A stretch of 64,000 bases of DNA, taken from positions 48,174,001-48,238,000 of the forward strand of contig OZ024745.1 of NCBI GenBank assembly GCA_964016885.1. Reading direction: 5' to 3'. A program made the translations under genes and the position numbers. The DNA comes from Eledone cirrhosa (Eukaryota). Numbering within the stretch: position 1 is the first letter of the stretch; the number at the start of each line of letters is the position of its first letter. Under the pieces are notes generated by a model, which searched no databases, was not told the origin of the DNA, and worked only from the letters and a program-made list of their open reading frames with translations. Of the stretch, positions 16,801 through 43,909 are shown piece by piece.

Positions 16801-19800
16801 TGTTTTTGTTTTTTTGATATTCAAAATATTTTCAATATAACAAGTATTTCAAGGCCATTTTCAATATAACAAGTATTTCAAGGCCATTTTCCCTGCTAAA
16901 GAAGTTAGCTTCTCAGGGCCCCATAATAAGCTTCTCCATTTTTCCCTCTTGTTTGCATATGCCTTTCCAATGCACTGGCTTTCATTTCCTTCTTCATCTT
17001 TAGCCATATCTTTCTTGGTCATCCCCTTCCTCTACTTCCTTCCTCAGTCACTTTCATCCTTCTCCACTACATGATCCAACCATCTCATTCCATTTCTCTT
17101 CACAACATTCACTTGAGTGTAATTTATTAATGACTTTTTTTTTTTTTTTTACTTTGTAGAATTTTAAACTATCTATAGTTCAGGATTATGACAGAACATT
17201 CTTGCAGAGAAAGAAAAGACAAGATGCAACAATATCCCGTGAGGTTCCTGTTACCACTCCGAAGCAATTTAATCATTTGGTATCTAATATATTTTAACTA
17301 TTTCATTGTAAATGAGCTTTTTAAATGAACACTTACTCTTCCAATTTATCCACTAAAAATACTTTATAAAATTTTGAGTCAAAGAAAGAAGAGCAATGCC
17401 TATGATACCTTCCAGGGCCTCCAAGACCTGTGGAAGTGAGGGAGGAAGGTATCTTTAAAACCAGAGACCTGGCTCAAATATTTTCAACAGAGCAGGCTTT
17501 GCTAAAAGCACCCAAAGTGCACCTGGGTGATGGATTAAGTCTACCATTCAAGAGGGTGGCAACAAGATTTGAACTCAAAATACAAACAGCTGGAAAAAAT
17601 ACTGCTCTAACGATTTGGCCAGTCCAAACTTAGCAGACAGAACCCCAAAAAATACTGGAAGGCATTTTATCTTAGATTCTAACAACTCCACCAATTCAAC
17701 ATCTAATTCATCATCATCCTCATCATTACCATCATCATCTCCAACAGCAATAATAGGACAGTTGTAACCATGTGGGTAAAAATTTGATTTCCTAACCATG
17801 TGGGTCTAAGTTTGATCCCACTATTCAGTACATTACAGTAGAAAAGGAGTAGACATAAACTCCATATGGTGTACACAATGTAAACCTTGGGTACACAAGA
17901 GATGTAGTGGAATAATGGGTAGACTAACAAGAAAGGAAGACTTTGTATGTAGAAGATGCACAGGAGTAATCAAGGGGAAGAGCAGCATTAATATAAACCT
18001 CTTCAAGTCAAGAGAAGGGTCCATAGAAGTGGTTGGTAGCTTTTGCTGTCTAAGTGACATAACCAGCTGTGGAGGAGGGTGCTCTGGGAGCATAATAGCT
18101 AGAATAAGGATAGGATGGAAGAAGTTTAGAGAGCTACTCTCACGGTTGACAACAAAAGGTTTCTCCCTACATACAATATAATGCCTGTGTGAGAAGTGGA
18201 ATGCTGCATGGTAGTGAAACATGGGCAGTGGCTGCAGAGGACATGTATAGACTGGAGAGAAATGCTCTGATGGATGTGCAATGTAAATGTGAGAAAAAGG
18301 CAGAACTTGGATGAACTGAAGGAGAAACTGGGTTTAAGGGGAATCCAAGGTGGTGTGCTGGAGAGAAGACAGGATTGGTATGGGCGTGTGATGTGCATGA
18401 ATGATGATTGATGGGTGAAGAAGTGCCAGTAAATGCTAGTAGAAGGGAGCTGCAGTAGAGGTAGACTGAGAAAGACCTAGGCAGAGGTAGCGAGAGCTGA
18501 CCTTGAATTGTTGAGAGTCACAGAGGAGATGACAAAGAAACGCAGTAAGTGGATATACACTGTGCTGAGAAGGAACTATCCAACCCATGCAAGCATGGAA
18601 AAACTGACCTAAAAACGATGATGATGATGAGCTGAGGTTTGAATTTTGTTAGATATTCACTTACTCATTTGACCTATGAGGAATATTGTATCCTGAACTT
18701 ACTAATAACAACCTTAGTCTTGACTAAATAGTTTTGTATAATAGTTAAATAGGAGATAACATGATCTATGGTGACAGTAATTATGTTTCATTTGGCGAGC
18801 TTCACTGTTACAATTAACTTAATGTTCTCAATTAGTGCACTATTCCATGTCCTGGTAAGTATAACAATTATTACGACACTCCTATGTGATTGCTAATTGT
18901 TCTAACTGCTAGATGGTTTCCTGGAATACTATTGTGTCAGTTTTGTTCATTCTTTATGTTATGGTCCTATTTTCCAACTAATGATGTATATTTATTTACC
19001 CTTTTTTTGACACACACACACACACGCACACGCACACACTACCTTGAAAATCTCCTGCTAGATTTGAAGGTGTTTTCACTGGGATATTTGTTAAACTGGT
19101 TTTCCTTCTTGTTTGTTAATCCTGTTTGTATATCAGATACAAATTCATTGTTTGCCCATATATAACAGAATTATGATTCTGTCATCAACTTTAACACCCT
19201 AACATTTTAGACACAATTATATCTCGGCAACTTTGCCACTCTCCTACCCCTTCCCCCTTTCACATTTTGCTTCTCATCTCTGACCTCTTAATTTTGTTTT
19301 TTTCATGCCATAGTATAAGCTATTAATTTGAGAAAATGATTATAGGTTTCATGCAGCTGCCACTATGGAAAAGCAGTGTTGATTGATGTGCTATTAACAT
19401 TACATGATTAAAAATCTCATACTAATTAAAGCTGAAATGAGTTGTCATAAAAATTTGTGAAGATAATTTTTCTAATGATGAAATCATAGGTGTAGATGAA
19501 TGGCTTGTGAGAGCTATACAAGTTATGTATAATGAAACAGTCAGTAAAGTTAAAATTAACAATGAATATTGTGAAGAATTTAGTGTAAAAGTTGGTGTTC
19601 ACCAAGGCTCTGTCCTTAGCCCCCTCCTATTTATTATTGCCCTTCAGGCTATAACAGAGGAGTTCAAGACCGGCTGCCCATGGGAACTCCTATACGCAGA
19701 TGATCTAACGCTCATAGCTGAATCAATGGCCGAACTAGAAAAGAAATTCCAAACATGGAAGCATGGCCTAGAATCAAAAGGCCTTAAAGTTAACTTGTCT

Positions 19801-21091
19801 AAGACTAAAGTCCTAGTTTGTAGAAAGGAAAATAAGGCACAGGTACCCTCAGGGAAATGGCCTTGCTCAGTGTGTAGAAAAGGAGTAGGCAGAAATTCAA
19901 TTTTATGTCCCAAATGCAAAGTATGAGTACATAAAAGATGTAGTGAGATCACAGGTAAACTATCTAAGAACGTAGACTTTATATGTGGCCGATGCTTAGG
20001 TGCAATAGGTAGCAAGTGTCCACAGGATACTAGCCCTTTCTATTGCCCAGATGGTCCTATAGAAATAGTAGACACTTTCCGTTACCTGGGTGATGAAATC
20101 AGCAGTGGTGGAGGGTGCTCTGAAAGTACAGTAGCCAGAGTCAGAACGGGATGGAAAAAGTTCCGAGAGCTTATACCGCTGTTGGCCACAAAAGGTTTCT
20201 CTCTAAAAATGAAAGGCAGATTGTATGATGCTTGTATACGAACAGCAATGTTACATGGCAGTGAGACATGGGCATTGTGTGCAGAGGACCTGCGCAGACT
20301 GGAGAGGAACGAAGCATGCATGCTCCGTTGGATGTGTAATAGTAACATACGTGAACGGCAAAGCATAAATGAACTAAGTGAGAAATTAGGAATAAGAGGG
20401 ATCAGATGCTGTTTACTCGAGAGAAGACTACGTTGGTATGGCCACGTGATGCGCATGAAAGACGACAGCTGTATAAAAAAGTGCAGGGCGATCAAAATTG
20501 ATGGTAGTTACGGAGTAGGTAGACCCAGAAAAACCTGGGACAATCTGATAAATTCCGACCTTACACACTTTCACCTCTCTAATACAATGTCACTGGACCG
20601 ACATCTTTGGCGCTACGTAGTAATACAGAAGACCCACCTTGCCTATATACAAAGCGAAACCTACAGTCAGTAGGCACCTCTTAACCAAATATACACCCCA
20701 ATCCACTACCCCTACCCTATCCTCCCACTCCCACCAACACCACCCCCTCTCTATAAAGTTGGTACCACAACATCCAGTCCAAATAAATGAGATAAATGAG
20801 ATCGAGATCGTGTAGGTGTCACAAGAAAAAACACACAGTCCACGCTGTAATGTGGCCATGTAGGTAACACGGTAAAAAGTTCCCAGTTCCACACTGTAAA
20901 TGTGGTTGGTGTTAGGAAGGGCATCCAGCCGTAGAAACCTGCCAGATAGTCCTATATGAGCAAGACACAGTCACCCGACCAACCTTGCCTCAAGTGGGAC
21001 AATTCCCGTCTAACCCATGCTAGCGTGGAAAGTGGACGTTAAACGAGGATGATGATGATGATGATGATATAAAACTGAGGATGTCTGTCTC

Positions 21092-21124
<33 letters not shown>

Positions 21125-24100
21125 GTGCATGTGCACGCGAGTTTGTATCCCTAAAACTCGAGAAGTACCCAACCGATCTTTTTCAAACTTTACATGTGTA
21201 TTACTTATATTTCAGGGAGCGTTATGCACATAAAAAAACTCAATATTTTGATCCCCTGGGGCCCGCATTAGGAGAAAAACTGCATTTTTTCAGCTTTTTA
21301 GGGGTTTTTTGAGGCGTTACGTCAGACCGATTTCCTTGAAATTGTAACTATGTATTAGTCAGTCTCTTCTTCAATACCGTGAGCAAAGAAAATCCAACTT
21401 TTTAATCGTCTAGGGCCTGCATTAGGTGAAAAACTTCATTTTTTCAGCGTTTTTAGGGCTTTTTTGAGGTGGGTACGTCTAGCCAATTTTCCAGAAATTT
21501 CAAAGAATATTATGCACATAAAAAAAATCATTTTCTTGATCCCCTAGGGCCCGCATTTGGTGAAAACCTGCATTTTTCCTGCTTCATCGAGGAAAATCTT
21601 AAAGATTATCCAGCCATCAGAGTATTCGGTTTATTTTCTTTACATATTGTCGAGGCATGCAGTTTTTCCACGATTAGGTCTGTTGGCGGCCCGCGTTCCA
21701 AAATACCTTATCCCGTGCAATGCCGGGTACCACTGCTAGTGATAAATAAATTTGGTACAATATGTCACCAAAGTTAATGAGAAGTATCTAGAGCAATAAT
21801 TATACAAGGTTACAGGGCAGCAATTTGGCAGAGCCTCTGACAAATGCTTAGCAGTTTTTGTTCCAGTTCAGAGTTCAAATCCTGCCACTTGTCAACTTCG
21901 CCTTTCATCCTTCCAGTGTTTATAAAATAAAATACCAGTCACATACTGGGGTTAATTTAATCAATTTTCCCTCCTATTTATATTTGTAGATAGAAAATCC
22001 TCAAGTGCCTGGGAACTTTGAATATATGTTTAATGATAATGAAAATTTTATTGAAGATAGTAAGTATAATTTTATATACAACTAATCTCATATACTTTTG
22101 ATGTTATTTTACTTTTGCTTTAGTACTATTGACTTGGTTGTGGTGAAGTACGGACATGGTTTGAGATGACCCATCTAACCCTTGCTATCAGAGAAAACGG
22201 ACATTAAATAATGACGATATATTTTGCAAAGTGATTCAAAAGTTATTATCTCATTTATTCTCCCTTTAAGGGTTTGATAATCATCATCATTATCATCATC
22301 ATCATTACTGTTTAATGTCCATTTTCCACACTAGCATGGGTTAGACAAGTTGTCCTACTGTGAGACAAGTCAGATCAGGTGATCACGTCTTGCTCATACA
22401 GAACTATTTCTGGTTTGGTTTCTATGGCTAGATGCCCTTTCCTAACACCAACCTCATTTACAGTGTTGACTGGGTGCTTTTTATCATGGCACCAAAATGA
22501 CCAACTAACAGGTTATATTAGGTACTTTTTCATTGTGTCACAAGGATAATCATTATTGTTTGGCATAAACCTTTGTACCTATATATATCTTTCATGTGAA
22601 TTTCCCATATTTTTTATAAGTTGTTTATTTGAATTAATACATTGTTTTTGTTGACTTGGAGAAAGCCTTTGATAGAGTCCCCCCCGCTCCATTATCTGGT
22701 GGGCTCTTAGAAAACTAGGTGTTGATGAATGGCTTGTGAGAGCTATACAAGCCATGTATAAAGAAACAGTCAGTAAAGTTAGAATTAACAACGAATATAG
22801 TGAAGAGTTTAGCGTAAAAGTTGGTGTTCATCAGGGCTCCGTTCTTAAACCCCTTCTATTTATTATTGCCCTTCAGGCTATAACAGAGGAGTTCAAGACC
22901 GGCTGCCCATGGGAACTCCTATACGCAGATGATCTAACGCTCATAGCTGAATCAATGGCTGAACTAGAGAAGAAATTCCAAACATGGAAGCACGGCCTAG
23001 AATCAAAAGGCCTTAAAATTAACTTGTCTAAGACTAAAGTTCTAGTTTGTAGGAAGGAAAATAGGGCACGGGTCCCATCTGGGAAATGGCCATGCTCAGT
23101 GTGTAGGAATGGAGTAGGCAGCAACTCCATTTTATGTCCAAAATGCAAAGTATGGGTGCATAAAAGATGTAGTGGGATCACAGGTAAGCTAACTAAGAAT
23201 ATAGATTTTATATGTGGCCGGTGCTCAGGTGCAATAAGTAGCAGCAAGTGCCCACAGAATACTAGCTCATTCCATTGCACAGATGGTTCTATAGAAATAG
23301 TGGACACCTTCCGTTACCTGGGTGACAAAATCAGCAGTGGTGGAGGGTGCTCTGAAAGTACAGTAGCTAGAGTCAGAACGGGATGGAAAAAGTTCAGAGA
23401 GCTTATACCACTATTGGCCGCTAAAGGGTTCTCTCTAAAAATGAAAGGCAGGCTGTATGATGCCTGCATACGAACAGCAATGTTACATGGCAGTGAGACA
23501 TGGGCATTGTGTGCAGAGGATATACGCAGACTGGAGAGGAACGAAGCTTGCATGCTCCGCTGGATGTGTAATAGTAATATACGTGAACGGCAAAGCATAA
23601 ACGAACTAAGGGAGAAATTAGGAATAAGAGGGATCAGATGTTGTTTACTCGAGAGAAGACTACGTTGGTACAGTCACGTGATGCGCATGAAAGACGACAG
23701 CTGTATAAAAAAGTGCAGGGCGATCAAAACAGACGGTAGCTCCGGAGTAGGCAGACCCAGAAAAACCTGGGACGACTTGATAAATTCCGACCTCACACAC
23801 TTACACCTCTCCAAGACAATGTCACTGAACCGAGATCTTTGGCGCTACACAGTAATACAGAAGACCCACCTTGCCTAAGTACAAAGCGAAACCTACAGTC
23901 AGTAGGCACCTCTAACAAAAATACACCCCCGTTCCACTACCCCCACCCTATCCACACCACCCCTTTCAATGTAAAGTTATGTTGGTACCACAACATCCAG
24001 TCCAAAACAAATGAGGTCGTGTAGGTGTCACGACAAAAAAAACACAGTCCACGCTGTAATGTGGCCGTGTAGGTAACACGGTAAAAACCTCCCAGTCCAC

Positions 24101-27100
24101 ACTGTAAACGTGGTTGGTGTTAGGAAGGGCATCCAGCCGTAGAAAACCCGCCTGACAGTCCTATACGAGCAGGACAACCAATCTTGCCTCAAGTGGGAAA
24201 ATTCCCGTCCAAACCCATGCAAGCGTGGAAGATGGACGTTAAACGATGATGATGATGATGATGACATTGAGTATTTATGACAGCACACTTATGCTCCCAC
24301 CAGTTGTATTTACATCCTTTTGCCTCCTTTTGTTTTCAGATTCTGCTGACATCTTACCTGGTGAATTTTATGATCTGAAATTGAGGTGATATATATATAT
24401 ATTCCAAAATACTTTATGAGAAATTGTTTTGCAGAAATATGCAGTTTGATTATTGTGGATATTCAAGATAGTTATGATAGCAATGAGAACCTCAGTTATT
24501 TGAGTTGATAGTGTGGACCTTCCAGCTATATATTAAAGATTTCTTTTGATCAACTATGTTGTATCCACTTTGCCTTTCATCCTTTTGAGGTCAATAAAAA
24601 AAGTACCACTCATTTCTCCCCCCCCCCCCATAAAATTACAACAACAACAACAAAAAAACAAGTTGGCCACGTTCAAACCTGGAGAGGGTATGGGCTCTGC
24701 CCGGTTTTAAATGTCTATATCACTTATATCATAACAGCAACTCTATGACTTCATCAGGAGTTACAGGTCCATACATGCATAGAAAAGATATCTAATTCTC
24801 AATAGTTCATTCACTTTGTTGGCAAATTGACAGAATCATGAGAGGCAAGGTAAAATATCTTCAGGTATTTATTCCGGCCCTCTGTGCTGTGAGTTCAAAT
24901 TCGCCTTTCATTTGATATAATAAAGTATCAATCCATAACAGGATTATTGGAGCATTGGGCATGATGGCTTTAGGTATTTGTTCCAGTTTTTTTGGCTCTG
25001 GGTTCAAATCCGGTTGAGATCAAATTTGTCTTTTATCCTTTCAGGGAAAAGATATAATAAAGTATAAATCTAAGGCAGTGGCTTGACCTAATTGTTAGAG
25101 CATTGGTCAAGATGCCATGCAGTGTTTTTTTTTGGCTCTTTGCATTCTGAGTTTAAACCCTACTGTGGCCTACTTGGGTTCACACTGCCCCTTGACTCTT
25201 TGGTACCTTTAGCAGGGTTCACTCTGTTATAAATAATTGGGTCAGGTTTCCAATCTGAGGATATCTTCCGTCCTTATCAGTCTTTCAGGCCCTGTATAGG
25301 TTTGGGGCATTGGCCCCCACCACCCTGATTAAACAGTAAATTAGAACTATAGAAAAAAAAATGATTAAGCCATTTCATTTCATGTCTTTCACCAGTTTAC
25401 TGTGCGATAACATCTTCTGCAGTTCATGTAATTGTTACAAATGGTTTGCATCCTCAGATGTTTCTAATGTTAATCAACATTGAAAATATATAAAATGATG
25501 ATAATGATGAAGAAGAGGAAGTGGAGAAGGAGGATGATGATGATGATGATGATGAAGAGGAGGAGGATGTGTATGTTGAGCATGATTAGGATGTGAATGA
25601 AGATGATGATGGCGATGATAAAATAGATGGATTTTTCTTTGTAAAATTTCTGTAATATTTACATTTATAAAATGCCTTCTAAAATAATTTCTTCTGCCTT
25701 TTTTTTTTTTTATTTCAACAGAAATGATGGTATTTCCAAAATGAATTTCTCTTTACCAGATTATATTACAACTTGGGAGATTCAGACATTTGGAATTACT
25801 GATACTCATTTCTGTGTGGCTGAATTATTTGAAGTAAAAACTTTCAAAAGTTTTATGGTCAAACTGAAATTTCCTGAGTTTATAAAAATATTTGATTATG
25901 TTGCGATCAAGGTTTTTCTATATAATTATAAGAATACAGGCCTAAAAGTAAGTTCCAACATTACTTTTATATGTTAATGCTACAAGCTTTGCAATAGGTT
26001 TGAAGGTGAATATTTAAAATTGTACAAAAGTAATATTTAACATTGTTCAGATGATTGTATGTATATATATGTATGCATTTATATGTATGTATGTATATAT
26101 ATGTATGTATTTATATGCATGTATATACGAGTATATACAGTAATTTTGTGACACACTATAGTGTTGCAACCCAGTTTGAAAGCCTCAGCTCTAAATAATC
26201 AATCATAAAAAGTAATTCATATCTATATTTAATACCAGGAAGACTCCATAACTTGATAGCTTCTACTACCTAGGTGACTTAATTAGCAGTGGAGGAGGTT
26301 GTTCTGAGAACATAGTACACAGAATAAGAAAACGATGGAAAATGTTCATAGACCTCTGGTGACAACAGAAGGTTTCTCTTTATGAATGAAAGGTTAACTG
26401 TATGATGCCTATTTAACTGTATGATCCCTCGAATTCACTTATATAAGAAATTGACATTTATCCTTGTAGTTTTATGCAACAAACAAACAAATACATTTGT
26501 ATCTTTCTTTATTCCTAGGTAAAACTTACTCTTCATAAATCAACAGATCTTTGTTCATATAACAATAAAAAGGGACATTCATATCAAACAACTGTTAATA
26601 TTCAAGCAAATGAGACTACCTCTACCACTTTTGTGATTCGACCTATTTATTCAGGATATTTGCCCATCAAAGTCTCTGCTAAAGTGATTGAATCAAATTA
26701 TAATGAAATTGTTGAAGAGGAAATGTTTGTTCACAAAAATACTTCAAATGTAATTATTCTATTCCTTTATCTAACATCTCTGTTTTTTCATTGGCCAGAT
26801 GAGTATTAGCAATTAACTGTATTTCAATAACAATACTGAAACACACACACATATATATATATATATATATGAGAAAAGTCAACAAGGAACATGTAGTTTT
26901 GACACTATAGTGTCAAAACTACATGTTTTCACCTATATTTGAGTTCTAGTAGAAAGCAGGGTAAGGGAGCACTGTCTTGATAATGACCAGAGTCAGAAAT
27001 GACATTGTCGACAGTTACTCAGCCTTAGCTTCTGCTAGAATCTGCTGAAGACTTTCAAAATGTTTATTTGTAAACATACTGTATATCACTAGATATACAA

Positions 27101-30100
27101 AATACTCATACTTACATATATATTTAAAAAAAACAATGAAGTTTTGTTTACATGTAATCACCTACATTATATATATATATATAATTGGTGTTGGATGCTT
27201 AAAGCGTCCATATGCGGTAGGAGGGCGTTTGAGCACTCGATGCTCTCATAGAGCAGAGTATTATATATATATATATTTATATATTTATTTTTATATATAT
27301 TGTTTCTTTAACAGTCTCTGAAAGATAATGAAAATAATCTCTCATCCGAAATTACCGTTCCAGTTGTGAAAATTGAAGATAATGAAATATCATTCAAAAA
27401 CCGTATGTAGGAAATTGTATTTGATCAAAATATTGACATCCTTATTAACTGCCTTCATTTTGATATTTTGCACTGATTTTAAATGTAAAAAGATTTTATA
27501 AATATATTTTTCAATTTTAACACTAAAAGATCCTATGTACAAGTATCTCATTAACATTTAGATCATAAGTTTATATATGTTAAATATATGACAGTGTAGA
27601 GTGGTGAGTTGGCAGAGTTGTTAGGATGTCGAATTAAAAATGCTTTAGTGTTTGTTCCAGCTCTCTGCACTCTTATTTCAAACGAAAGGCCGTTTCTACT
27701 GTCTCCAGCAATCCTGCAAACTGCTATCTTTCTTCCTGTCATTCCAATAGCAGTGCACATTCTCCAAATTGACTGAGCCAAAATCAACTGGAAATAGCTA
27801 TGCCTGCCATCCTTTCTCTCTGCACTTCTGCACAATATCTTGGTACTTGGCACTCTTTTATTTGAAATAATCCATAATTCTATTCTGTTCTTTTTTCAAT
27901 TCTGATTTTTAAATTTTTTATTTTCTTTTTGTACTAGGTTATTTATTTAGCAGTATTGTGAAAAGTGCCTTAACTGAACCTGAGAAATTGATACTTATGT
28001 CATATGGATCTGGAGAACAAAATATTATTTATATGGCACTAACAATTTATGCTTTGAAGTATATCAGAAATACTATCCAGATGGATGAAGAAATATTTAA
28101 TAATGGGAAGAAATTCATCAGAATGGGTAAAGTTGGTTTTATATAACATATATCTTAGGTGGTGGCTTAACAGAATCGTTAGAGCATCAGACAAAATGTT
28201 TAACAGTATTTGTTCCAGGTCTTTACATCTGAGTTCAAATCCTACTAAGGTCAATTTTGTCTTCCATCCTGCCAAGTTTCATAAAATATTGTGTAATCTG
28301 TAAATCCCTATATTTTCTTAAAATGGTGACAGAACACCTAGGAAATCCTATGTCTGACAACCTCCCTAATATGCATTAAGTATTTAGTTCCATCCCTTTA
28401 CATTTTGAGTTCAAATCTCCAGCTGAAGTTCATTTTGTCATTCATCCTTGTTGAGTCAATAAATTACAGTACCAGTCAAATACTGGAATTATTATAATGA
28501 TTATATAGGACAATGGATTAGCAGCATCAGAGCATCAGACGAATGTTTCATAGCATTTATTCCAGCTCTTTACATTTTGAGTTCAAATCTTGCTACGGTC
28601 AACTTTGAATCCTTCTGAGATCGATAAAATAAAGTATGAGTCAAGTAGTGGGGTTGATATTATTGACTTTCGCATCTCTCCAAATTTCTGTCCTTTTAAA
28701 TATCTCAGAAATCAGTATGTAACATATATAATACAGTATTATGGAATTATTGCATAATATATCTAAATACAGAATAACTCTTTAAATTCATTGAATTAAT
28801 TATATTATATTCTTGTTGTAGTGTCCTTGACTGGCCCTAATCTAACAGACTTGTGATCAAAGGTATTCTAGTCTTGATAATCTTGTCTTTTTAGGATATC
28901 TAAGACTAAGTTATCTAATGAATCCCACCTTTGGAGATGGTAAGGGTATCATTTGAAAGAGATTTAGCTGCTATTCTTCATATGTTGAGCATTCATATAG
29001 AGTTTCCCTCTTCTCGATATAATAGTTTCCTTGGACAGAACTAAAGTAAAAAGCAGGCCTAGGTAACTTGCAGCACTCAGAATTCATGTTACACTTTATG
29101 ATTTTTTTTGTATAGCATGGTATGATTATATAAACATATCAAATTTTTACGAAAATCTTGTAACCTAATTCACTCTTGCTTTGTCGCAATCAAATTTTTA
29201 GGATTTGCTTAGTGTAACATATGGCATTGTCTGTACTACATACAATGTTTTTAAAATTAATTATTTTTTTAGAAGTGTTGTCTGATTTTCCTAATTTATG
29301 GTGAACAATATTTCATAAAGTCTGCTGCTAGAGAAAAGTTGCTTACGTCTGGGGTAAAGAATAGCTGAATTCATAAAGGTCAATATACTAAGATAGAAAT
29401 AAATATTTGTAATTTAAATCTTGTGACTTTAGAAATTTATTTTAGTACGTCCTAGCAGAATGGCCTGGCGTTGCTCGGGATTTGCTCTAGGGTTCTTATA
29501 TATTTAATATATCGAGCCTCGTGAAATAAATGTTTGTTTATATTTTGTTATTGTGTATGCAAAAATATCTGTACACGAATATATAATTATATATATATAT
29601 TAAAATAACAGATTAAAGTTTAAGCAAAGATTCGCTGCTTTCACTCTTAACAGGATCTTCTGAAACTAAAAAAATCAATCTGTGAACACAGAAGTACATA
29701 TTTCGAAAAACGTTACACACTATATATACACGCACTATATATACATATATACACACATATAGCGTCATAATGTCGTAATGCAGACATCCAGACATACAGA
29801 CAGATATTATAAGGGCGTGACGTTGTAGCTATGTATCTATCTAAAAAGAGAGACTAAGAATTATAGAGAGAGATCGCTTTTTCGTCTAATGCAGTCTCTA
29901 GGGCATTGAAAATTTGAAATATGTTTTGCTCACAACACTCGCACGGCCATAAGTATTACATGTGTAAAGTTTGAAAACAATCGGTTGGGTGGTTCTCGAG
30001 TTTTAGGGAATCAGACAGATAGACATTCTCTGTTTTAGATATATAGATGACATATAGAGAGAGCTTCATAGAGGAATTTTGCAAGATGGAACAAGACTGC

Positions 30101-33100
30101 TTTCGGAATCCCTAAAGAGAGGGGTGTGTAAAGGAGCTTCTCTCAAGATTCAAAAGAGCTAAGAGGAAATGACAAAAGAAGGCAGCAAGTGGGAAGATAA
30201 TGTGCTGGAAAAGACCTGTCCAACCTTTTCAAGTATGGAAAAGCAGAAGTAAAAATCATGATGATGATGACGACGATGGTGATGATGATGTTTAACCTCT
30301 TGTTCTCAGCAATGCGCAAATAAAAAAAGTTTTCATTTTTGGAAATGGTTGTGTATGAATAGAGGGACACAACCCAGATATGAAGGGAGTTAAAAGGGAT
30401 GATTTGACAGGGATAAACTACTCTTACAAACAAAAATATTTGGATTTATTGTAGAAATTATTTAATTACATCATTCAAAATGTTGAATAAATTTTTTTTA
30501 AATAATCAAATTCATATTTTTCAGGTATTGAAAAACAGATGACTTATAGAAAAAATGATGGCTCTTATTCAACTTTTGAAAATACGGAATCAAGCACATG
30601 GTAATGATAAAGACTATTTGCATTAATTGCATTAATAACAGCAAAATGTGATTCAAGGCTTAATATTACTGAATGCATGAAATAACAATCATCATCATCA
30701 TCTTCACTATTTAACGTCTGTTTTCCCAGCTAGCAAGAGTTAGATGGTCTTCACAGAGTGAATCAGTACTCAAGTAGGGAGCATACTGATCCCACACTCT
30801 ACCGAGTACAATTTATCATGACACTAGCACTAGTGAGGTTGTTCTGTCTTTGATGTAGCTGAAGAGTCCTCCCAACCATTTGTTTGGCAGCTATTCTACA
30901 ACTGAATTCTCTTTCTATCACCAACCACTTTACAGAGTGAACAGAGGTTGGTAATTGGATATATATATATATATATATATACAATATATTAATAAATGGA
31001 AACTATATTTATAAAACCATAATTATTTTATTATATATATTTCAAGGGCGACCAAGGTAAATTATGGTGCGCTGAAGTGAGCGAAGAAATAAATTTTATA
31101 TGGTTGAGCAATCAGAATGTAAATATTCATTATGTTATGTTTATATTATTTATAAAGGTAAAGTTAAAAAATTAAATTAATGATAAAAAATCTTTACAAA
31201 AGAATAGTTATAATTTAGTTAAAAATTTAACCAGAAATTTAATTAAAATTTAATTAGAATTTAATTAAAATTTAATTAATTACAATAAGATATATTACAA
31301 AAAGAAGTATTCAAAAATTTAAGATGTATTAAGGTTTAGATGGGTATGTTATGTTATAGGTTATAAATTATTTGAATGTATAGTATTTTGCATTGGAAAA
31401 AACCAAGTATAGTTTAATTGATTAAAGTAAGTTTGGCTAAATATAATTTTGCCAGAGTTTATTAATAGTTATAAATCAAATCTTAAACATCAAATATTTA
31501 TGGAGATTTACGAGAGTTTAGAAAGGAAAAATTATTTAATTAGGAGTATATATTAAAACAATTTACAATTTCAACTATAAAAATTGAGATTATAAAAACA
31601 ATAAGGAAGTTTAAAGGAAGTTAAAAGGGATTTTTTAAAAACCCAAATGACTCAAAGGATAGATAAAAATCACTATGAAAGTTATAAGAAGTTATAAAAA
31701 GTCATCTTAAAATATAATTAAAATATTAGACATAATTATTCTACATATATATAAATAATATAAATGATTGGATATATATGAAAATATATAAGTATTAAAA
31801 ATAATTGGATATATATGAAAATACATAAGTATTAAACATGTTTAGAATATTGGAAGATGTAGGGGTAATGGAAGATATGAAAATATTGGTTTTTCGTATC
31901 TTTCAAAAGAATCTTTCAAAAACTTAATCATAAGTTTTACAAAAATTTCCAGGTGTTTCGAAGGAAATTTTTAGAATTTTTCAAAACATTTTCATAAAAG
32001 AATTTCTGGAGGTAGGATTGAAAAGTGCAATAATATAAGTATTAGAAAGTAAAGGTTTTAAGGAGTAAATTAAAATTAATAAGTGTACTTTATATATTTA
32101 GGAAGGTTAGAATTATATTGATATATATAATCTGAGGGAAGAGATTATAGGTGTTTGAATGTAGAAAACGTTAAGTAAGGAAGAATGAACATATATTACA
32201 TTTTATATATATATCTAAAAGTTGAGTTTAACGGATGTTTACAAGAACTAAATAAATTATTCCGTAAATTAATAGAGTTCTTAGATTTTAGTATAAAGAA
32301 TATTTCCTCTACGCAAAGGCTACAAAATTTGGATAGAGCTGTGTAAGATGGTGCTTTGGAGACAATATTCCAAGATAAAGAGTAGTTTATATTCTTGGAT
32401 TTTAAATTCCATAAGTTGGATAGAGAAGTTGAAGATCTTTTGGTAATATTCGTAAAGGAACATCTATGGTTATTGAAACGAGATTTGAAGTCTGCCAAAG
32501 TAGAGCCGACATAGTTGAAGGAATTATCTTTGGTTTTGACATTACAATTGTATACTATATTTTTAACTAAACAGTTATTATTTAGAGGACAGTTAGATTT
32601 ATGTTTTATAAATATAGTTTCCATTTATTAATATATTGTATATTTACTCCACTAACTTGTTGAGTGCTTTATATCAGTTATAAAAATGTTTAATCATCAT
32701 CATCATCATCAACGTTTAACGTCCGTGTTCCACGCTTGCATGGGTTTGGATGGGGGTAGTCCCACTTGATGCAAGAGTGATTGTCTTGCTCGCATAGGAC
32801 TGTCTGGCAGGTTTTCTACAGTTGGATGCCCTTCCTAACACCAACCACATTTACAGTGTGGGTCTGGGAGGTTTTTACCGTGTTGCCTACACGGCCACAT
32901 TACAGCGTGGACTGTGTGTTTTTTTGTCGTGACACCTACACGATCACATTTGTTTCGGCCTCGATGGCGCGGCACCAACATAACTTTACATAGAACGGGG
33001 TGGTGTGGATGGGGTGGGGGTGGTGGTGGTGGGACGGGGTGTATTTTGTTAGAGATGCCTACTGGCTGGAGTAGGTTTTACTATATATTTTTAGGTAAGG

Positions 33101-34698
33101 CGGGTCTTCTCTGTTACTGAGTACCGCCAAAGGTCTCGGTCCAGTGACATTGTCTTGGAGAGGTGTAAGTGTGTGATGTCGGAGTTTATCAGCTCGTCCC
33201 AGGTTTTTCTAGGTCTGCCTATTCCGTGACTACCGTCTATCTTTATTGTCCTGCACTTTGTTATACAGCTATCGACTTTCATGCGCATCACGTGTCCATA
33301 CCAACGTAGCCTTCTCTCGAGTAAACAACATCTGATCCCTCTTATCTCTAATTTTTTCCTTAGTTCGTTTATGCTTTGCCGTTCACGTATATTACTGTTA
33401 CACATCCAGCGGAGCATGCAAGCTTCGTTCCTCTCTAGTCTGCGTATATCCTCTGCACACAATGCCCAGGTCTCACTGCCATGCAGCATTGCTGTTCGTA
33501 TGCAGGCATCGTACAACCTGCCTTTCATTTTTAGGGAGAACCCTTTAGCAGCTAATAGTGGTATAAGCTCTCTGAACTTTTTCCAACCAGTTCTGACTCT
33601 AGCTACAGTACTTTCAGAGCACCCTCCCCCACTGCTGATTTTATCGCCCAGGTAACGGAAGCTGTCCACTATTTCTATAGAACCCTCTGCGCAATTGAAA
33701 GAGCTAGTATTTTGTGGGCACTTGCTGCTACTTATTGCACCAGAGCACCGGCCACATGTAAAATCTATGTTCTTAGTTAGCTTACCTGTGATCCCACTAC
33801 ATCTTTTATGCACCCATACTTTGCATTTAGGACATAAAATGGAGTTTCTACCTACGCCTTTCCTACACACCGAGCACGACCATTTCCCAGAAGGGACCGC
33901 CGCCTTGTTTTCTTTCCTACAAACTAGTACTTTGGTCTTAGCCAGGTTAATTTTAAGTCCTTTTGACTCTAGGCCGTGCTTCCATGTTTGGAATTTCTTC
34001 TCTAGCTCGGCCATTGATTCCGCTATGAGTGTCAGGTCGTCTGCGTATAGGAGTTCCCATGGGCAGCCTGTCTTGAACTCCTCTGTTATAGCCTGAATAT
34101 ATATATATATATATGATAAACACAAAACGTGTTTGCATTGCAACAGACAAAGTTAGCTATTAATGAAATAAACTAATTAAAGTGAATACAATTTGTCTGT
34201 CTCGATATAAGTCAATAAAGACAAGCTTATATTGGCAAAGGCCGTGATTCCTGGACAAATCTAAATTTCAAAATCCAAACCCGCTCCGTAGATGAATTTG
34301 AATTTCGAAACCTAAATATGTTTCGCAACGATGGTACGTGAATTGAAAAATAAAGAGAATCGAAATGGAATTGAAATAAAAAGTGAAATATCCAAATCTT
34401 CTGTGCTTATCAACAGGAACCCAGTAAAATTAGCATATCTCACCATCAAAATATTTTGCAGGTCTGACTACACATGTGTCTAGCCAGGCCAAAGTAGCCG
34501 TCCCGCATTCCCGGTGCTAGAAATAACAGCCGTTTGTGCGTTATTAAAGATCAGCTCTACAGTTAAGGAGCAATATACTATATTATAATTTGAGATTAAA
34601 CTCTCAGTCGTTTACAATAAATCAGCTCCAAGAAAGGCCCCTTTCTTGGAGCTGATTTATTGTAAACGACTGAGAGTTTAATCTCAAATTATAATATA

Positions 34699-34732
<34 letters not shown>

Positions 34733-37013
34733 CACAAGAACTTGCAAATAAATACAGTATGGAAATAGAGAAATTGTTTTTATTATTTCTATTAGGTTGA
34801 CAGCATTTGTATTGAAGATATTTTGTGAGGCATTAACTCTGCAAGAGATAGACAGGTCTGTCATATCGTCAGCATTTCTATGGCTACTTAAGAAACAAAA
34901 GAACAATGGTGCATTTAAAGAAGACAAATTGATTATTTATAAAGAAATGATGGTAAGTTTGTGATTTGGGAATTTCTAATATTGATTTGTTTGTGTTTTT
35001 AATTATCATTTTTTTTCTCAAATTATATACAAAACATTATACTATATATTTTTTTATTCAATTAATTTAAATGCCTGTATAGAGCTAGCAAGCCATGACA
35101 GACTATGAGAGGTGTCTAATAACCTTTCCAATTAAAAATCAAAAACAAGAGAGAAACAAAGAGAAAAAAGAAAGAAAGAAAATGAAACACGAGGCAAAAG
35201 AAACAAAAATAAGAAAAAATGTTAAAAAGCAGGGATAGCTATAAAGCAGTTAAAAGTTTCTGTTGAATCTTTTCATAGCCTCCTTATACTGAAAGATGTT
35301 GTTTATGATTGGTGGATCCTTGACAATATTTTGCACCTCTTGGTGAGTTTTTAAAGACAAATTTCAAAATGTCCTCTCTCACAGACTGGTAGTTTTTATA
35401 TTGGAACAAATAGTTCCAATAAAGTTTCTAGGTTGTCTCCACAAGAACATAGAGGTGACTCTGTATGGCCTGTTCATGATAAAATATAGTTCATGGTTGA
35501 AGCCAAAATAACATTAGTTTATTAACATACATTTTAAATTATAATCTTCCAACATAATTTTATATAAGAACCATATGTGGAAGTATTATCATGATAATAA
35601 AATGTTGAATCCATGGCAAATTTCTACAGCTGGATACTCTTTTTTATGCCAACCCATACTTTTCAGTATGGTAAGAGATTAACCAACTTAACAGCATTTT
35701 GGAGGTAAAGACACGCACAAATACACGCATATATACAAACAATGGGCTTTCACAGTTCCCATCTACCAAATTTATTCACAAGGTATTTGTTGGCCTGTGA
35801 TTATAGCAGAATACACTTAGCCAACAACATGCTTTATAAGAGAACTTCGAAATCACACAACCATAGTAGTAAAATAATAGTTTTGTAAATTCATCAAAAT
35901 TCTTTATTAATTAATGGAAATAGAGTATATTTCTTTAAAAGTACAGTCATAAAAGGGTTGAAAACGTATTTCAGCAATGATAATATGCATATATATATAT
36001 ATATAAAAAGTAAAAAAGCTTAGAGATATATTTAAAGATTATTTTTTTCTACAGAATGAATATTTTTATAATTGTTACATCAAATAGATTTAAAGTTTCA
36101 ATTTATATGTCAATCTTATCAAATAAAAAAAGGTTGTTTTCATATTCTGTGGGCAGTTAGAACATATGTGAATTTTCTGACAAAATGTCTTCTTATATAT
36201 AAGCACTTTGTGAAGTTTGGTGGTGGTGATAGAAGTGGAGTTGAACAGATCCGTGTTCAATTGATTCACCAGAAAATTCTCTTGAAACAGTAAATTTCTA
36301 TTCATAAATAATGGACTAAATGGCATTTCTTTATTCTGTAATTTGTACACACACACAACAAAGCAAAGAAATGCCACTATATATATATATATATGTGTTT
36401 TTTTTTGTTTTTTTTTAATCCAGGGAGTTATTTCTGATACTGGTTTAACAGCCTTTGTTTTAATTAGTTTCATGGAGTGTAAAGAAAATTTCCACCAAGA
36501 GGTAATTGTTTATTTGTTGCATTTTTAATAATGAATTATATTACATATATGTTAGTGTGTGTTTTTATTTATATATATAAACACACATGCCTCTGGTCGC
36601 ATTATTCATGATATCACTATTCCTTTAGTTTTTGTGTTCACTCTGAGAAGAGATTTGTCAATTACTCACTCATTGAGTGCTTTGTGACAGTCTCCGATGA
36701 TTCGATTGTTTATCTGCAAATTCGATTATACTCACTATTATATATATATAAATATACATATTAAGCTAACAGAAGTCTGATGAGCTTTTGATTCCAGAGT
36801 CAGGCCCGATCTATAGAGTTCGAACCTTGAACTGATTAATTGCAAAACATGTAACATACCTGAATAAACGTAATGAAAATTTGACACCTCATCCATAATT
36901 ATTATTAATATTACACTCTACTTGGTACAACGCCTGAGTACATACTGGAAACTACGCATCGAATGCTCACTTTGGTGAACCAACAGTAACTTGATGTTTC
37001 ACTCCCTAAAATT

Positions 37014-37044
<31 letters not shown>

Positions 37045-40000
37045 CACACAATGCAGATCTTGGGTACACAAGAGATGTAGTGGGATAGCAAGCAAACTAA
37101 CAGGTAGGGAGAAATACATATGCAGTAGATGTACAGGAAAATTAGATAGTAGAAGTCGCATTAATAGACATATTTTTCAAATGCAGGTGGGTGCTATAGA
37201 AGTGGTTGATAGCTTCCGGTACCTAGGAGATCATATTAGCATGGGAGGGGGGGGGGGGGGGGTTCAGAGGCCATAGTATCTAGAATAAGGACGGGTTTGA
37301 AGAAGTTTAGGGAGTTGCTTCCTCTGCTGACGAAAAAGGGTTTCTCCCTGCGTACGAAAGGCCGGTTATATGATGCCTGTGTGAGGAAAAATGAGGCAAA
37401 CATGCTCTGTTGGATGTGCAATGTCAACGTGCGTGAACGACCGAGCATAGATGTGTTGAGAGAGAAACTGTGTCTGAGAGGGATAGATTGTAGAGAGGAG
37501 ACTGCGATGGTATGGACATGTGATGCGCATGGAGGATGACCGATGGGTGAAGAAGTGCCAGGAAATGCCAGTTGAAGGAAGATGTGGTAGAGGTAGACCA
37601 CGAAAAACATGGGCGGAGGTGGTGAGAGCAGACCTTAGATTGCTGAAGCTCACAGTGGAGATGACGAAGGACCGTGATAAGTGAAGAGATGCTGTGCTGA
37701 ATAGGACCCGTCCCACCCTGGCAAGCAAGGAAAAGCAGACGTAAAATGATGATGATGATGATTATATGTATATATTTAAAAAAACTGGAAAAGAATGACT
37801 TCATTAAATTTAATTTTATAATATTATGATTTTACAATTTTTTAAAATATATCTTTAAATTTACCCTTCTAAATATACCTAACTGTACCAAGGATTTCAC
37901 ACATTTTCTAATATATATATATATATATTGTGTGTGTATGATGTGATAAACATTTTATGAGCTCTTTCTAAAGTTAATGTTAAATGTTAATGTTACATAG
38001 TAAGTTCAGCTTTGTGTCATTTTAAAATTTTCATATTTAAATTCAAGGAAATTTTTGATAGCTCAGTATTTTACATAATTTTTCTGTTTTTCATTTTCAA
38101 CAGATTCTTGAAAACGAACAGGTTATCATCCACTCCATTAAATATTTAGAACAAGAACTTAATAGAATTGAGGATGATTTAACATTATCAATTGTAACAT
38201 ATGCTCTGACCGTAACAAGAAGTAAGAACAGTACACATTCTTGGAATAAATTAGATGAAAAGGCCATATCAGAATCAGGTAGTAACATTTATCTTTGGTT
38301 CTCTCTTACTGTTTGAGATTGCATATTATATAATGTTATGATATTTGTTACAATGGACTGGTGATGTATATGTTACAATGGACTAGTGTATCAGTTGATA
38401 TACAAGAGGAGATCCATTCTGAATGAGAAACGGTGTTTCTTATTTATAATTGGTGAATGGCCCACTCTCTAAAGTTGTGCTAGAGTCATGACAAAAAGGA
38501 CCCAGTCCATACTGTAATGTAGTGCTTGTATCATAACAAAAAGGACCCAATCCATGTTGTAAGTGCTGGTGCCATGACAAAAAGTGCTCAGTAAGATGGA
38601 AGTGTCAGAATCATGATAAAATGCTCCCAGTGCATTACTGGTGCTTTATTATATCAACACTGTAAGGATAAAAGGCAAAGCTAACCTCTGTGGTATTGAA
38701 CCCAGAATGTAAAGGGTTATAACTCTATGCCACAAAGCACGTTGTCTGGCTCTCTATCTATACTGCCAATCCACTGCCCTTAAATATGGTAATAACGATG
38801 ACAGTGATTTGTGGTAACATTGAGATGACTGAGTCATTAGAGCATAGGACAAAATGCCTTTCAGGATTTGTTCTGAGTTTAAATCCTCCTCAAGGTCAAC
38901 TTTGGCTTTCATCCATTCAGTGTCAATAAAGCAAAGAACTAATCCATCATGGTGGATTGGTAAAATATTAATGCATTGGGTGAGATGCCTTGCTGTAATT
39001 ATCTCAGCTCTTTATATTCTGAGTTCAAATCCTATTGTGGCTTATTTAGGTGATAGACTTAATTCCATTGCCTGGCTTATCACCCCCATCTGGCACATGG
39101 GGACTTTTAATAGAAACCACTATGTTACAAGCATTCAAAGTAAGTCACTGGTTCCAAGATAACTTTATTCCTCTTTCTTTCTCAATAGTCTTAGTGATCC
39201 TGGCAAAGGTGGTGAGTACTATTGGCTACTATTCTTTATTCCCTAATAAAACAGTAAGAAAATAAATAACCAATGCAAGTGTTATATTCTTTGCAATAGT
39301 CATACTATGTGTGCATGTATTGTGGTGTGTGTGTGTTTGTGTGTAGTGGTATGTATGTATATAATGGTGTGTGCTTGTCTGTAGTGTATGTTATAGCAAT
39401 GACATGTATGTATATAACAGTGTTTGTGTATGGTACATGTATATAGTGGTGTGTGTTTGTTGTGTATGATGGATGTGATAGTAGTGGCTGCTGATCTTAT
39501 ATGGAACCAAACAAGATAATGAAAACAAAGAACAAAACAAAGAGGAAGAGAAAGAAAAACAAACAGGAAGAAGAAGAAACTACAATTTGTTGATGAGTAT
39601 AAACCTCAAATCCCAAAGACATCTCCTGAATTGAGGGCAGTGGCTGTATGGGTGTATTGTTATGTCTACCTACATTTCTAATGTTCTGAATTACTACACA
39701 TTATGTCAGACAGGCAGAAACCCAACACCCATGTCATGTCAACAAGAAAATAGTAAAATAAATAGAGAAATTAAATAGGAATAAAATCACAAATGAAATT
39801 ATATAAGTACCACACACAGAGACACATCACTATACATGCACATGAAAGGCTAAAACAGCAAACATAGCATTATACATATTCATGCCACTGCTATTACATA
39901 TACCAGAAACAGACTACTATATACAGATTCCAACACTAATACTATACACACACGTGTCACAATTATCACATACACCAAACATATACAGACTACAATATAC

Positions 40001-43000
40001 ATACATATGCCACTACTATCACATCCATCACACACAACAAACACACACCACTATATACATACACAACAAACATACACAATACACAAACACTTATATATGT
40101 ACATGTCATTAACATACACTACAGACAAACACACACATCACTATATACATACAGACAACTACACACAAACACACACACACCACAACACACATACAGATAC
40201 ACACACAAATACACACACACCACAATACACATACAGACAACTACACAGAAACACGCACCACAATACACATACAGACAACTACACAGAAACACGCACCACA
40301 ATACACATACGGATGACTACACACAAATACACACACACCACAATACACATACGGACAACTACACACAAACACACACCACAATACACATACATGCTATTAC
40401 TATACACATACATGCTACCACTATCACATACACTACACACAAACACAGAACACTATACACATACATGCTACCACTTTCACAAACACAGAACACTATACAC
40501 ATACATGCTACCACTTTCACAAACACAGAACACTATACACATACATGCTACCACTTTCACAAACACAGAACACTATACACATACATGCTACCACTTTCAC
40601 AAACACAGAACACTATACACATACATGCTACCACTTTCACAAACACAGAACACTATACACATACATGCTACCACTTTCACAAACACAGAACACTATACAC
40701 ATACATGCTACCACTTTCACAAACACAGAACACTATACACATACATGCTACCACTTTCACAAACACAGAACACTATACACATACATGCTACCACTTTCAC
40801 AAACACAGAACACTATACACATACATGCTACCACTTTCACAAACACAGAACACTATACACATACATGCTACCACTTTCACAAACACAGAACACTATACAC
40901 ATACATGCTACCACTTTCACAAACACAGAACACTATACACATACATGCTACCACTTTCACAAACACAGAACACTATACACATACATGCTACCACTTTCAC
41001 AAACACAGAACACTATACACATACATGCTACCACTTTCACAAACACAGAACACTATACACATACATGCTACTGCTGCTTGCCATACCAGAAATAGCAGCT
41101 ACATTCCCCCACATTACATACTGCCATTTAAAATAAAAGTTGGAGGTAACATCCATCATTGTTGTTAGGGGTTTGGGTGTGTGGGGGTGGATGTTGGGGA
41201 AGATGGCGATGACGATGAGGAGGAAAAAGTGGTAATCCAGATGACAACAACAACAACAGTGATAATTTTTACATTATTCTATCTACTATACATTCACCTT
41301 TAATGAGTTGTAGTGTACCTGAGCACTGTACACAATAATTTTCATTATCATACCAGTCACGCACTGGGGTCAATTTAATCGACTTTCCCCTTTCCAAAAT
41401 TGCTGGCCTTGTACCTATATAAGAAACCATGCGATGCTGCATGGTAGTGAGACATGGGTAGCAACTTCAGAGGATATGCGCCGGCTGGAGAGAAATGAAG
41501 CAAGTATGCTCCGTTGGATGTGCAATGTCAATGTGCGTGAACGACCAAGCATAGATGAGTTGAGAGAGAAACTGGGTATAAGAAGGATAAGTTGTGGCAT
41601 GCAGGAGAGAAGGCTGCGATGGTATGGTCATGTGATGCGCATGGAGGATGACCGCTGGGTAAAAAAGTGCCAAGTAATCCCAGTAGAAGGAAGACGTAGT
41701 AGAGGAAGACCACGAAAAACATGGGCGGAGGTGGTGAGAGCAGACCTCAGATCACTGAAGCTCATGGAGGAGATGACGAAGGACCGTGACAAGTGGAGAG
41801 ATGCTGTGCTGAATAGGACCCATCCCACCCTTGCAAGCAGGGAAAAGCGAACGTAAAATGATGATGATTATTTTCTTATTTCAATTATGCTTCTCTATTG
41901 CTTCTCTTCTCTTTAATAAATTTACACAATTTTATCAGAATATTTCTGACAATATCAAATGTTGAAAATAATTACAACTATTCCTTCTGTATATTATTTT
42001 TAATGTAGGTAAAAAATATTGGCAAGCTGAATATGATGGAACAGATTCTTCTTTTTCGGTATTAACAACAGCTTATTCTCTGCTAAGTAGAAACCAACAT
42101 GATAATATAACAGAGTCAGAACCAATCTTCAAATGGTTGATGTTACAAACTAACAAAAATAGAATTTTCAGTTCTACTAAGGTAAGCTACTTAATGACAA
42201 GTCAAATAAGTAAATTTTGATTTGCTTTAGATAGATAGATACAAGATACACTCTATCCCTGTGTATAGTAAGAAGCAACTGTCAGAAAGGACATCCAGCT
42301 GTACAGTGCTCAGGTGCACTACAGCTATATAACATTGCCTTAAAAGCAAGCATAAAAAAGTTGACATAAAAACGATGACAATGATGATTGATATATATAT
42401 ATATAAAATACCATGTGAACATGTTACCATTACACTAAGGAGTGACTGACACTTCTTCCCATCTTTTTAGGATGCTATATTATACAGCTTGTAGTTAGAG
42501 CACAGCTGAATGCCAACATACCTTGTAAATTATTAAAGCACTGAGAGTATTTGAAATTTGAAAATATGAGAATCCCAAATGCAGAAAATAACTGTAAAAA
42601 CAATGGATCACTATAGATAATAGTTGAGAAAAAAGTGGACAGAAGCATTTCTGTCCACACACAAAGTGTATATATAAATATTATTGTCTAGTTTGGGTTG
42701 TGCGGATAGTACCCGTGATCTTTTTTAGGGTCTCTGAAAAAGGTGGGGTGGAGGAAAGTATCCTTAACCCTTTTTGGCAGGTTGGTATTAAAAGAATTAA
42801 ACTGGAGACCTGGTCAAGTTGTTTATAACAAAGTAGACTCTGCTCCTGGTACCCAGGGGCCAAGTAGTGGTGTTAAACTGGGTGATGGATAAGTCCCATA
42901 GCAGAATTTGACCTTCAGAATGCAAAGAGCCATAACAAATACTACAAGGCATCTCACTTGGTGATCCAGCCAGATCAATTGAAGATGTTGGATTCTGACA

Positions 43001-43909
43001 AGACTTGCTGGAAGATGTGTTGGAGGACTTGGCTTTCGCGACCCTCCCAAGAATAAGTGGGCAAAGAAGAGGAAGACTGGTACCTTATTTTATCCCCAAC
43101 CCATTTGCAAAAGGATGAAAGGCAAAGTTGACCTCAACAAGATTTGAATGTAAAGGGCTGTAATTAAATACAGCAAAGCATTTTGTCTGATACTGTAACA
43201 AGTCTGCAAATTCACTGCCTATAATAATAATTATAATAATAATGAAAATAATGGTTTCTTATATAGGCACAAGGCCAGTAATATGAGGGGAGGGTGAGGG
43301 GAAAGTCGATTAAATCGACCCCAGTGCATGACTGGTACTTTATTTTATCGACCCCCATAAGGATGAAAGGCAAAGTTAACCTCGGCGGGATTTGAACTCA
43401 GATCATAAAGGGCCGTAACTCTATGCTGCAAAGCATGGCATCCGACCCTCTACTGATACTGCCAACCCACTGCCCTATAATAATAATGAAAATCTTCCGC
43501 CCTATAATAATAATGAAAATAATAATTATATTTATTCTTATTACCTAATTTTTGTTTTCCAGAATACTGTGATTTCACTACAAGCTTTGGCAGATTACAG
43601 TATCAAGAGTAATATTCCATATCAAGACTTCAAGTTGGACATCATTGATGATTTAGACCAAAATGAACAAGAAATCAGCAATTTCCTAATTAATCGGAGT
43701 GCTATCTTTGAAAAACCAGCAATTTCAGATGTAAGAATTGATAAATTTTATTTTGTATTCACCAATACTAAGTTAACCCCAATGCTAACACATCTCTCTC
43801 TCTCCCCCCTCTCTCTCTATCTATCTCTCTCTCCCCCTCTCTCTCTATCTCTCCCTCTCTCTCCCTCTCTCTCCCTCTCTCTCCCTCTCTCTCCCTCTCT
43901 CTCCCTCTG

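Follow-up and report, generated by a model that had tools for sequence, protein, structure and literature searches.

Organization of the C3-derived gene

The window, a stretch of 64,000 nucleotides from Eledone cirrhosa, carries a gene derived from complement C3. It is read on the forward strand, as are all features located below, and occupies positions 3671-60185 with 27 of its 36 modeled exons. The model, built with orthologues, extends over ~160 kb; six more exons lie upstream, to contig coordinate ~48,114,400, and two downstream, to ~48,274,800. All exons are bounded by AG/GT, and the spliced frame of 1439 amino acids is intact and contains no stop, which rules out a pseudogene. A start codon and signal peptide were not located in the E. 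cirrhosa genome. Pfam matches of the orthologues (MG2, MG3, A2M_BRD, A2M, TED and A2M_recep), together with a fold search, place the protein in the TEP/A2M superfamily.

Exons 4993-5163 and 5873-5980 border the site of an absent MG4 (4993-5980), where ~75 residues are missing relative to C3. A putative furin-type beta/alpha site, RKKR, is encoded at 17208-17219. The linker exons 17160-17279, 21990-22059 and 24340-24385 (17160-24385) are Cys-free where C3 has a six-Cys anaphylatoxin (ANA) domain; exon 21990-22059, placed by a weak match and the fit of its phase, is the least certain of the model. MG6b, MG7 and a shortened first CUB half are encoded by 25722-25947, 26519-26749 and 27315-27402 (25722-27402). 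The first TED exon, 27938-28126, is the thioester exon; it is bounded by AG and GT, matches positions 5-68 of Pfam TED_complement and is identical to octopod orthologues at 55-56 of 63 residues. The remaining TED exons follow at 30525-30600, 34796-34952, 36424-36501, 38104-38278, 42009-42181 and 43563-43730 (30525-43730). Exons 56833-56916, 58064-58144 and 60117-60185 (56833-60185) encode the Anchor and the start of a C345C-like tail that continues beyond the window. This tail aligns with C3 tails and has their Cys pattern and introns. Pfam NTR matches in proteins of the thioester-less clade described below are weak (E 0.03-0.1, below the cut-off in two of four and none in the other two), and canonical O. 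vulgaris C3 likewise falls below the NTR cut-off.

The introns are rich in mobile elements. A LINE-like open frame of ~1045 codons with endonuclease and reverse-transcriptase features lies in the 39-kb upstream intron of the gene (contig ~48,126,070-48,129,200; -47931 to -44797 in window coordinates). Related retrotransposon reverse-transcriptase fragments fill other introns; three of them (19441-20673, 22676-23878 and 33091-34152) lie in or near the stretch where anaphylatoxin exons would be expected or within TED introns, and shorter copies occur as well. An intronic tandem repeat of ~60 bases at 39846-41168 yields long spurious open frames.

A serine codon at the former thioester site

The former thioester motif, at 28000-28020, translates as SYGSGEQ. 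Base 28010 is C, and the codon at 28009-28011 is TCT (Ser) in place of Cys. Genomic contigs from runs X1 and X2 differ from the thioester exon at no letter, although these runs derive from one sample, possibly the assembly's own source, and are not independent. Run X4 comes from a different sample of the same study. Its contig of 1012 nt joins 25722-25947, 26519-26749, 27315-27402 and 27938-28126 with no differing letters and extends into the next exon; it is taken as a transcript on the grounds of its splicing and of the single genomic copy found for the thioester exon. Thus, Ser is present in a spliced transcript. A contig from run X5, representing a second species (organism B), also covers and keeps the Ser codon, and differs from the thioester exon at 27965, 28002 and 28101 (three of four differences listed). 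RAD-seq runs X6 and X7 do not extend over the codon. The same codon in contigs of four runs, the spliced one and the second species included, rules out sequencing error. The sequence-only reading had judged the substitution not to be a single-base error, and this holds.

The substitution is not confined to Eledone. Ser occupies this position in 14 of 14 orthologous records, among them three Octopus species, Argonauta and Sepia. The motif loop reads SYGSGEQNIIYMALT in nine records (O. bimaculoides, O. sinensis, O. vulgaris and Argonauta hians) and SHGSGNQNIIYMAMS in five records from the cluster of Sepia pharaonis CAE1271171. Since Ser and the neighboring changes P>S, T>N and M>I are common to octopods and cuttlefish, they predate the split between the two. 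Without Cys the Cys-Gln thioester cannot form, and the Cys-x-x-Gln of functional C3 is absent from all 14 records.

A Cys-to-Ser change on its own is ordinary. Vertebrate C5 also has Ser at the thioester Cys position and has lost the Gln. The retained Gln, which the sequence-only reading had set against C5, is indeed present but is not unusual: of 337 other proteins with a motif, retrieved here as a query-biased sample, 16 read GSGEQ, and named examples are Biomphalaria TEP3 and human OVOS1 (PMC12874980). Mutated thioester sites are reported in 5 of 11 Biomphalaria TEPs, the GSGEQ of TEP3 being one (PMC7016707; PMC9363628).

Descent from complement C3

The closest proteins to the gene product come from Octopus and Argonauta, and database names within the clade vary between CD109-like, C3 and NTR-domain protein. 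In an IQ-TREE analysis of 36 rows and 676 columns (MG6b to MG8, LG+C20+F+G4), five thioester-less proteins form a clade (100/99) whose sister group is coleoid C3 (100/100), and both lie within the complement clade (100/100). FastTree recovers the same sister relation to canonical coleoid C3 (99) within the complement clade among 157 proteins. These trees are to be read with the deviant composition and long stems of the clade members in mind, and with C5, gastropod type I C3 and Nautilus absent from the set. Intron positions agree with the trees: 32 of 35 introns, the C345C tail included, lie no more than four residues from an intron in the intact C18 C3, where chance would give ~20% per site.

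A CD109 or insect-type TEP identity has some appeal, given the lack of an anaphylatoxin domain, the similar length and a CD109 or insect-type TEP as the top PDB sequence match of clade protein P0006. However, grouping with the six CD109 rows is rejected (p-AU 2e-71), and the cephalopod protein lies outside the CD109/iTEP clade with a C345C-like tail and no hydrophobic GPI-type end. The features of MCR (TEP6-like) are likewise missing, as the linker is Cys-free, no LDLa match is found and the C-terminus is polar. Orthology with vertebrate C5 is not indicated either: the sister group is cephalopod C3, in a tree without a C5 row, and there is no ANA domain.

Octopods and cuttlefish have this gene in common, a duplicate of complement C3 that is intact and spliced. 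Neither Nautilus, vampire squid nor gastropods contributed an orthologue to the 150 best representatives or to further searches, all limited to their top matches, so the age can be bounded only as before the octopod-cuttlefish split. A second C3 copy, hidden under CD109 or C3 labels, changes the inventory of cephalopod complement.

The sister group, canonical coleoid C3, is represented by Euprymna scolopes ACF04700, O. vulgaris CAI9738204 and the E. cirrhosa gene on a separate chromosome (C18:37.30-37.33 Mb), which keeps the catalytic His and the anaphylatoxin cysteines. The two forms have in common the MG-CUB-TED-MG8-C345C layout and, for the octopod copies, a putative basic beta/alpha site. 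Only canonical C3 has GCGEQ, a six-Cys ANA domain, LNK cysteines, MG4 and the MG8 residues discussed below; it is ~240 residues longer than the thioester-less copy and ~30% identical to it. Canonical coleoid C3 (P0093, P0210, P0092 and the C18 gene) also carries a second basic site, RPRR or RIRR, in the first CUB half just upstream of TED, where extra processing may be possible.

Losses accompanying the thioester cysteine

The 71 residues after RKKR contain no Cys; the six-Cys anaphylatoxin domain and the LNK cysteines are gone. MG4 (PF17789) is found in two of two canonical C3 proteins and in none of four clade proteins, the gap being common to octopods and cuttlefish. A search of the introns for remnants of MG4 and ANA gave nothing above chance, as 60 and 44 of 100 shuffled sequences scored at least as high. 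CUB is also reduced, its first half being shorter than in C3.

The residues that support thioester chemistry have changed as well. The catalytic His, ~110 residues downstream of the motif, is kept in 10 of 11 canonical C3 proteins and is Tyr in all four octopods; in the window this Tyr lies at 34938-34940 (IYKEMM, against IHKEMM in the intact paralogue). Elsewhere in the clade, Sepia P0206 has His and P0010 has Asn. In MG8, Leu (53372-53374), Ile (54306-54308) and Phe (55789-55791) align with Met1378, Tyr1425 and Tyr1460, in human C3 numbering as counted on the protein alignment, which we take to be the residues shielding the thioester in the C3 crystal structure. All three are kept in 11 of 11 canonical C3 proteins; Met1378 and Tyr1425 are replaced in all five clade members and Tyr1460 in four, Sepia P0206 keeping Tyr. 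The putative basic beta/alpha site is present in four of four octopods and absent in Sepia. As P0206 combines His and Tyr1460 with the lack of a furin site, cuttlefish and octopod proteins may differ in function.

Published work on C3 provides a setting for these losses. MG8 aromatic side chains are reported to shield the thioester (PMC9156758). The closed form is described as relying on two elements, the thioester pocket at the junction of TED and MG8 and the ANA domain, which acts as a wedge; this domain touches MG3 and MG8, and its loss destabilizes native C3 (PMC3464232).

The invariance of the motif loop, Gln included, among the octopods compared, and that of the Gln column, matched by just one other column in an alignment of 67 proteins, could point to an internal oxygen ester between Ser804 and Gln807, a slower or purely stabilizing bond in place of the thioester. 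This is very unlikely, because other residues stand in place of the catalytic His and at the shielding positions of MG8, the adjacent Glu is Asn in Sepia, and numerous unrelated proteins with GSGEQ also retain the Gln. When Cys is mutated to Ser in A2M or C3, the engineered proteins are bond-less and activated-like, which bears against such an ester too.

The cephalopod lineage, the loss of MG4 and the joint loss of the supporting residues look new; the kind of event is already known. This is an old, well-conserved loss of the thioester in which the catalytic His, the MG8 shield and the ANA domain were lost together and TED was conserved.

Constraint on the retained TED

From the flanking changes P>S, NM>NI and AP>AL, the sequence-only reading had argued for relaxed constraint. 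The changes are present, but they were scored against a generic consensus, as the nearest intact paralogue reads QTMIFLAP and not QNM..AP. Relaxed constraint does not fit the loop, which is identical at 15 of 15 positions in O. vulgaris, O. bimaculoides and Argonauta (11 of 15 in Sepia), with P>S, C>S, T>N and M>I invariant in the five clade members compared.

Between Eledone and O. vulgaris, the thioester-less copy is identical at 251 of 293 positions in TED (86%) and at 678 of 1123 outside it (60%). For canonical C3 in the same species pair the values are 237 of 308 in TED and 1040 of 1350 outside (77%), although the C18 C3 used here was stitched from tblastn matches that have errors at their edges, so that the contrast in TED (p=0.007) is less firm. 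Within octopods, the TED that lacks the thioester is conserved at least as well as the active TED, and drift is faster in the remainder of the protein. In the comparison of octopods with decapods, TED identity is 149 of 286 for the thioester-less copy and 210 of 309 for C3, so the thioester-less TED changed fast early on; with the long stem branches, this indicates that constraint was not uniformly high. Against organism B, the thioester exon shows two non-synonymous differences over 151 sites and one synonymous over 35, too few sites for a usable dN/dS and with difference lists that may be incomplete, and one MG6b/MG7 exon has pN about equal to pS (7/181 against 2/44). The AlphaFold model of P0208, a fragment from the cuttlefish cluster, retains a helical TED predicted with confidence (mean pLDDT 82.4); in a fold search it matches A2M, C3, C4, C5 and CD109 structures.

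Branches that are long relative to C3 and the lower identity outside TED might suggest a duplicate decaying under relaxed constraint, or an error in the sequence. Such an explanation is most improbable: the codon recurs in four runs, the spliced contig and the second species included, the frame is intact, the motif is identical across octopods, and the gene is kept in octopods and cuttlefish. Covalent chemistry was abandoned long ago in this coleoid C3 paralogue, and the gene has persisted. It offers a clean test case for what C3-family proteins do without that chemistry.

Other thioester-less relatives

Loss of the thioester is reported to have occurred repeatedly and independently in C3-like genes, and the gastropod type I form has also lost the ANA domain (PMC8960428). 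The gastropod type I proteins BgC3-1 and BgC3-3 of Biomphalaria are a parallel: they have C345C, a mutated thioester site and no anaphylatoxin domain, with an intact C3 alongside (PMC7016707; PMC8960428). However, they are attributed to a duplication in the gastropod lineage and have also lost the alpha-beta site (PMC7016707; PMC8960428), whereas the copy in cephalopods falls with their own C3, retains this site in octopods and has no MG4. As type I sequences are absent from the tree, independence from them is inferred. Vertebrate C5 and razor clam C3-like-3 are further C3-family paralogues without a thioester; they keep the anaphylatoxin domain and release an a-fragment, and C5b nucleates the membrane attack complex (PMC8960428). 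The comparison with C5 made in the sequence-only reading therefore stands for a paralogue without the bond and fails for the domain, which C5 keeps and the octopus protein does not have. Biomphalaria TEP3, OVOS1, fish C3 isoforms and Mya and Culex proteins have the same single-base Cys-to-Ser change with Gln kept, but belong to separate origins in other TEP subfamilies or lineages.

Published counts give each of three cephalopods one C3-like gene, in every case the canonical one (PMC8960428). A search by topic, motif and accession, with subscription journals and most supplements outside it, found no description of the thioester-less cephalopod lineage, and the accessible portions of PMC4361686, PMC13365339, PMC9334734, PMC12773714, PMC7768046 and PMC10142993 do not describe the paralogue. 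Much cephalopod and mollusc complement work sits in subscription journals, so the term undescribed is provisional. Among the rows listed in the O. vulgaris ink proteome supplement, neither accession nor motif of the paralogue appears, which is not evidence of absence; a CD109 row among them is another protein (PMC10142993).

Candidate functions

The product is probably (at about 0.58, judged from sequence) a secreted, non-covalent binder in an open, C3b-like shape, derived from a duplicated C3 that lost Cys, ANA and MG4. After duplication, the intact C3 would have retained covalent tagging, which would have freed the second copy. Once the thioester and the anaphylatoxin wedge were gone and the TED-MG8 face had changed, little would be left to hold a closed native form, and the conserved TED may serve as a binding surface for a microbial pattern, a hemocyte receptor or a complement partner. 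The three changes together favor an open form, although neither loss alone forces opening: C5 has no thioester and insect TEP1 has no ANA domain, yet both stay closed.

The C5 precedent lends itself to another explanation, in which a closed, C5-like pro-protein would be switched by cleavage in the Cys-free linker and act as a non-covalent downstream scaffold, for example for an MACPF protein. Octopods have the furin site and a protease-accessible linker, an MACPF transcript is reported from squid white body (PMC4361686), and the top ESM Atlas feature match is a cluster with the automatic name Complement C5 (score 0.98), clusters for C4 and C3 scoring the same or nearly so. Nevertheless, this seems unlikely given that the anaphylatoxin domain is absent, the MG8 interface residues are replaced and the thioester-less razor clam C3-like-3b is reported not to be hemolytic (PMC8960428).

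Remodeling on this scale, with MG4, ANA, the LNK cysteines and some of CUB gone, would disturb the surfaces where C3 meets its partners, and may instead reflect an exit from immunity to a function in structure or secretion, as part of a barrier, mucus, an egg coat or a gland product, comparable to the thioester-less MCR and ovostatin, the latter reported to remain functional without the bond (PMC7016707; PMC12874980). Descent from C3 and the kept C345C-like tail make this unlikely as well.

The open, non-covalent binder might be taken further, to an undescribed second complement component of coleoids: a minimal, always-open C3b mimic without thioester, anaphylatoxin or MG4, whose TED would bind a fixed partner and which would prime or tune the C3 convertase unactivated. 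This extension is speculative and on the doubtful side. If true, coleoids would have reached a multi-component complement system independently, and this would be the first demonstration of a TEP that folds without MG4.

Additional TEP loci and GSGEQ proteins

Other GSGEQ C3-like proteins are found in several fishes (P0018-P0020, P0022, P0024 and P0030) and in clams (P0131, P0143 and P0365, from Mya and a related representative); those put in the tree fall outside the cephalopod clade.

The E. cirrhosa genome contains further TEP loci, five of the seven with a visible thioester exon reading GCGEQ, the C18 C3 among them. A second TEP without the thioester motif lies at C4:281,595,000-281,605,000 and reads NGEGN at that position; it is ~380 kb from an A2M-like gene with GCGEQ and is possibly a tandem duplicate with a separate loss of the bond. 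Two near-identical CD109/TEP-like genes, at C1:441.60-441.62 Mb and 441.96-441.98 Mb, lie 360 kb apart on the same strand and represent a recent duplication or an assembly duplicate. TED exons of another TEP-like locus, presumably resembling MCR-type proteins and with no visible thioester exon, are found at C1:325.79-325.82 Mb.
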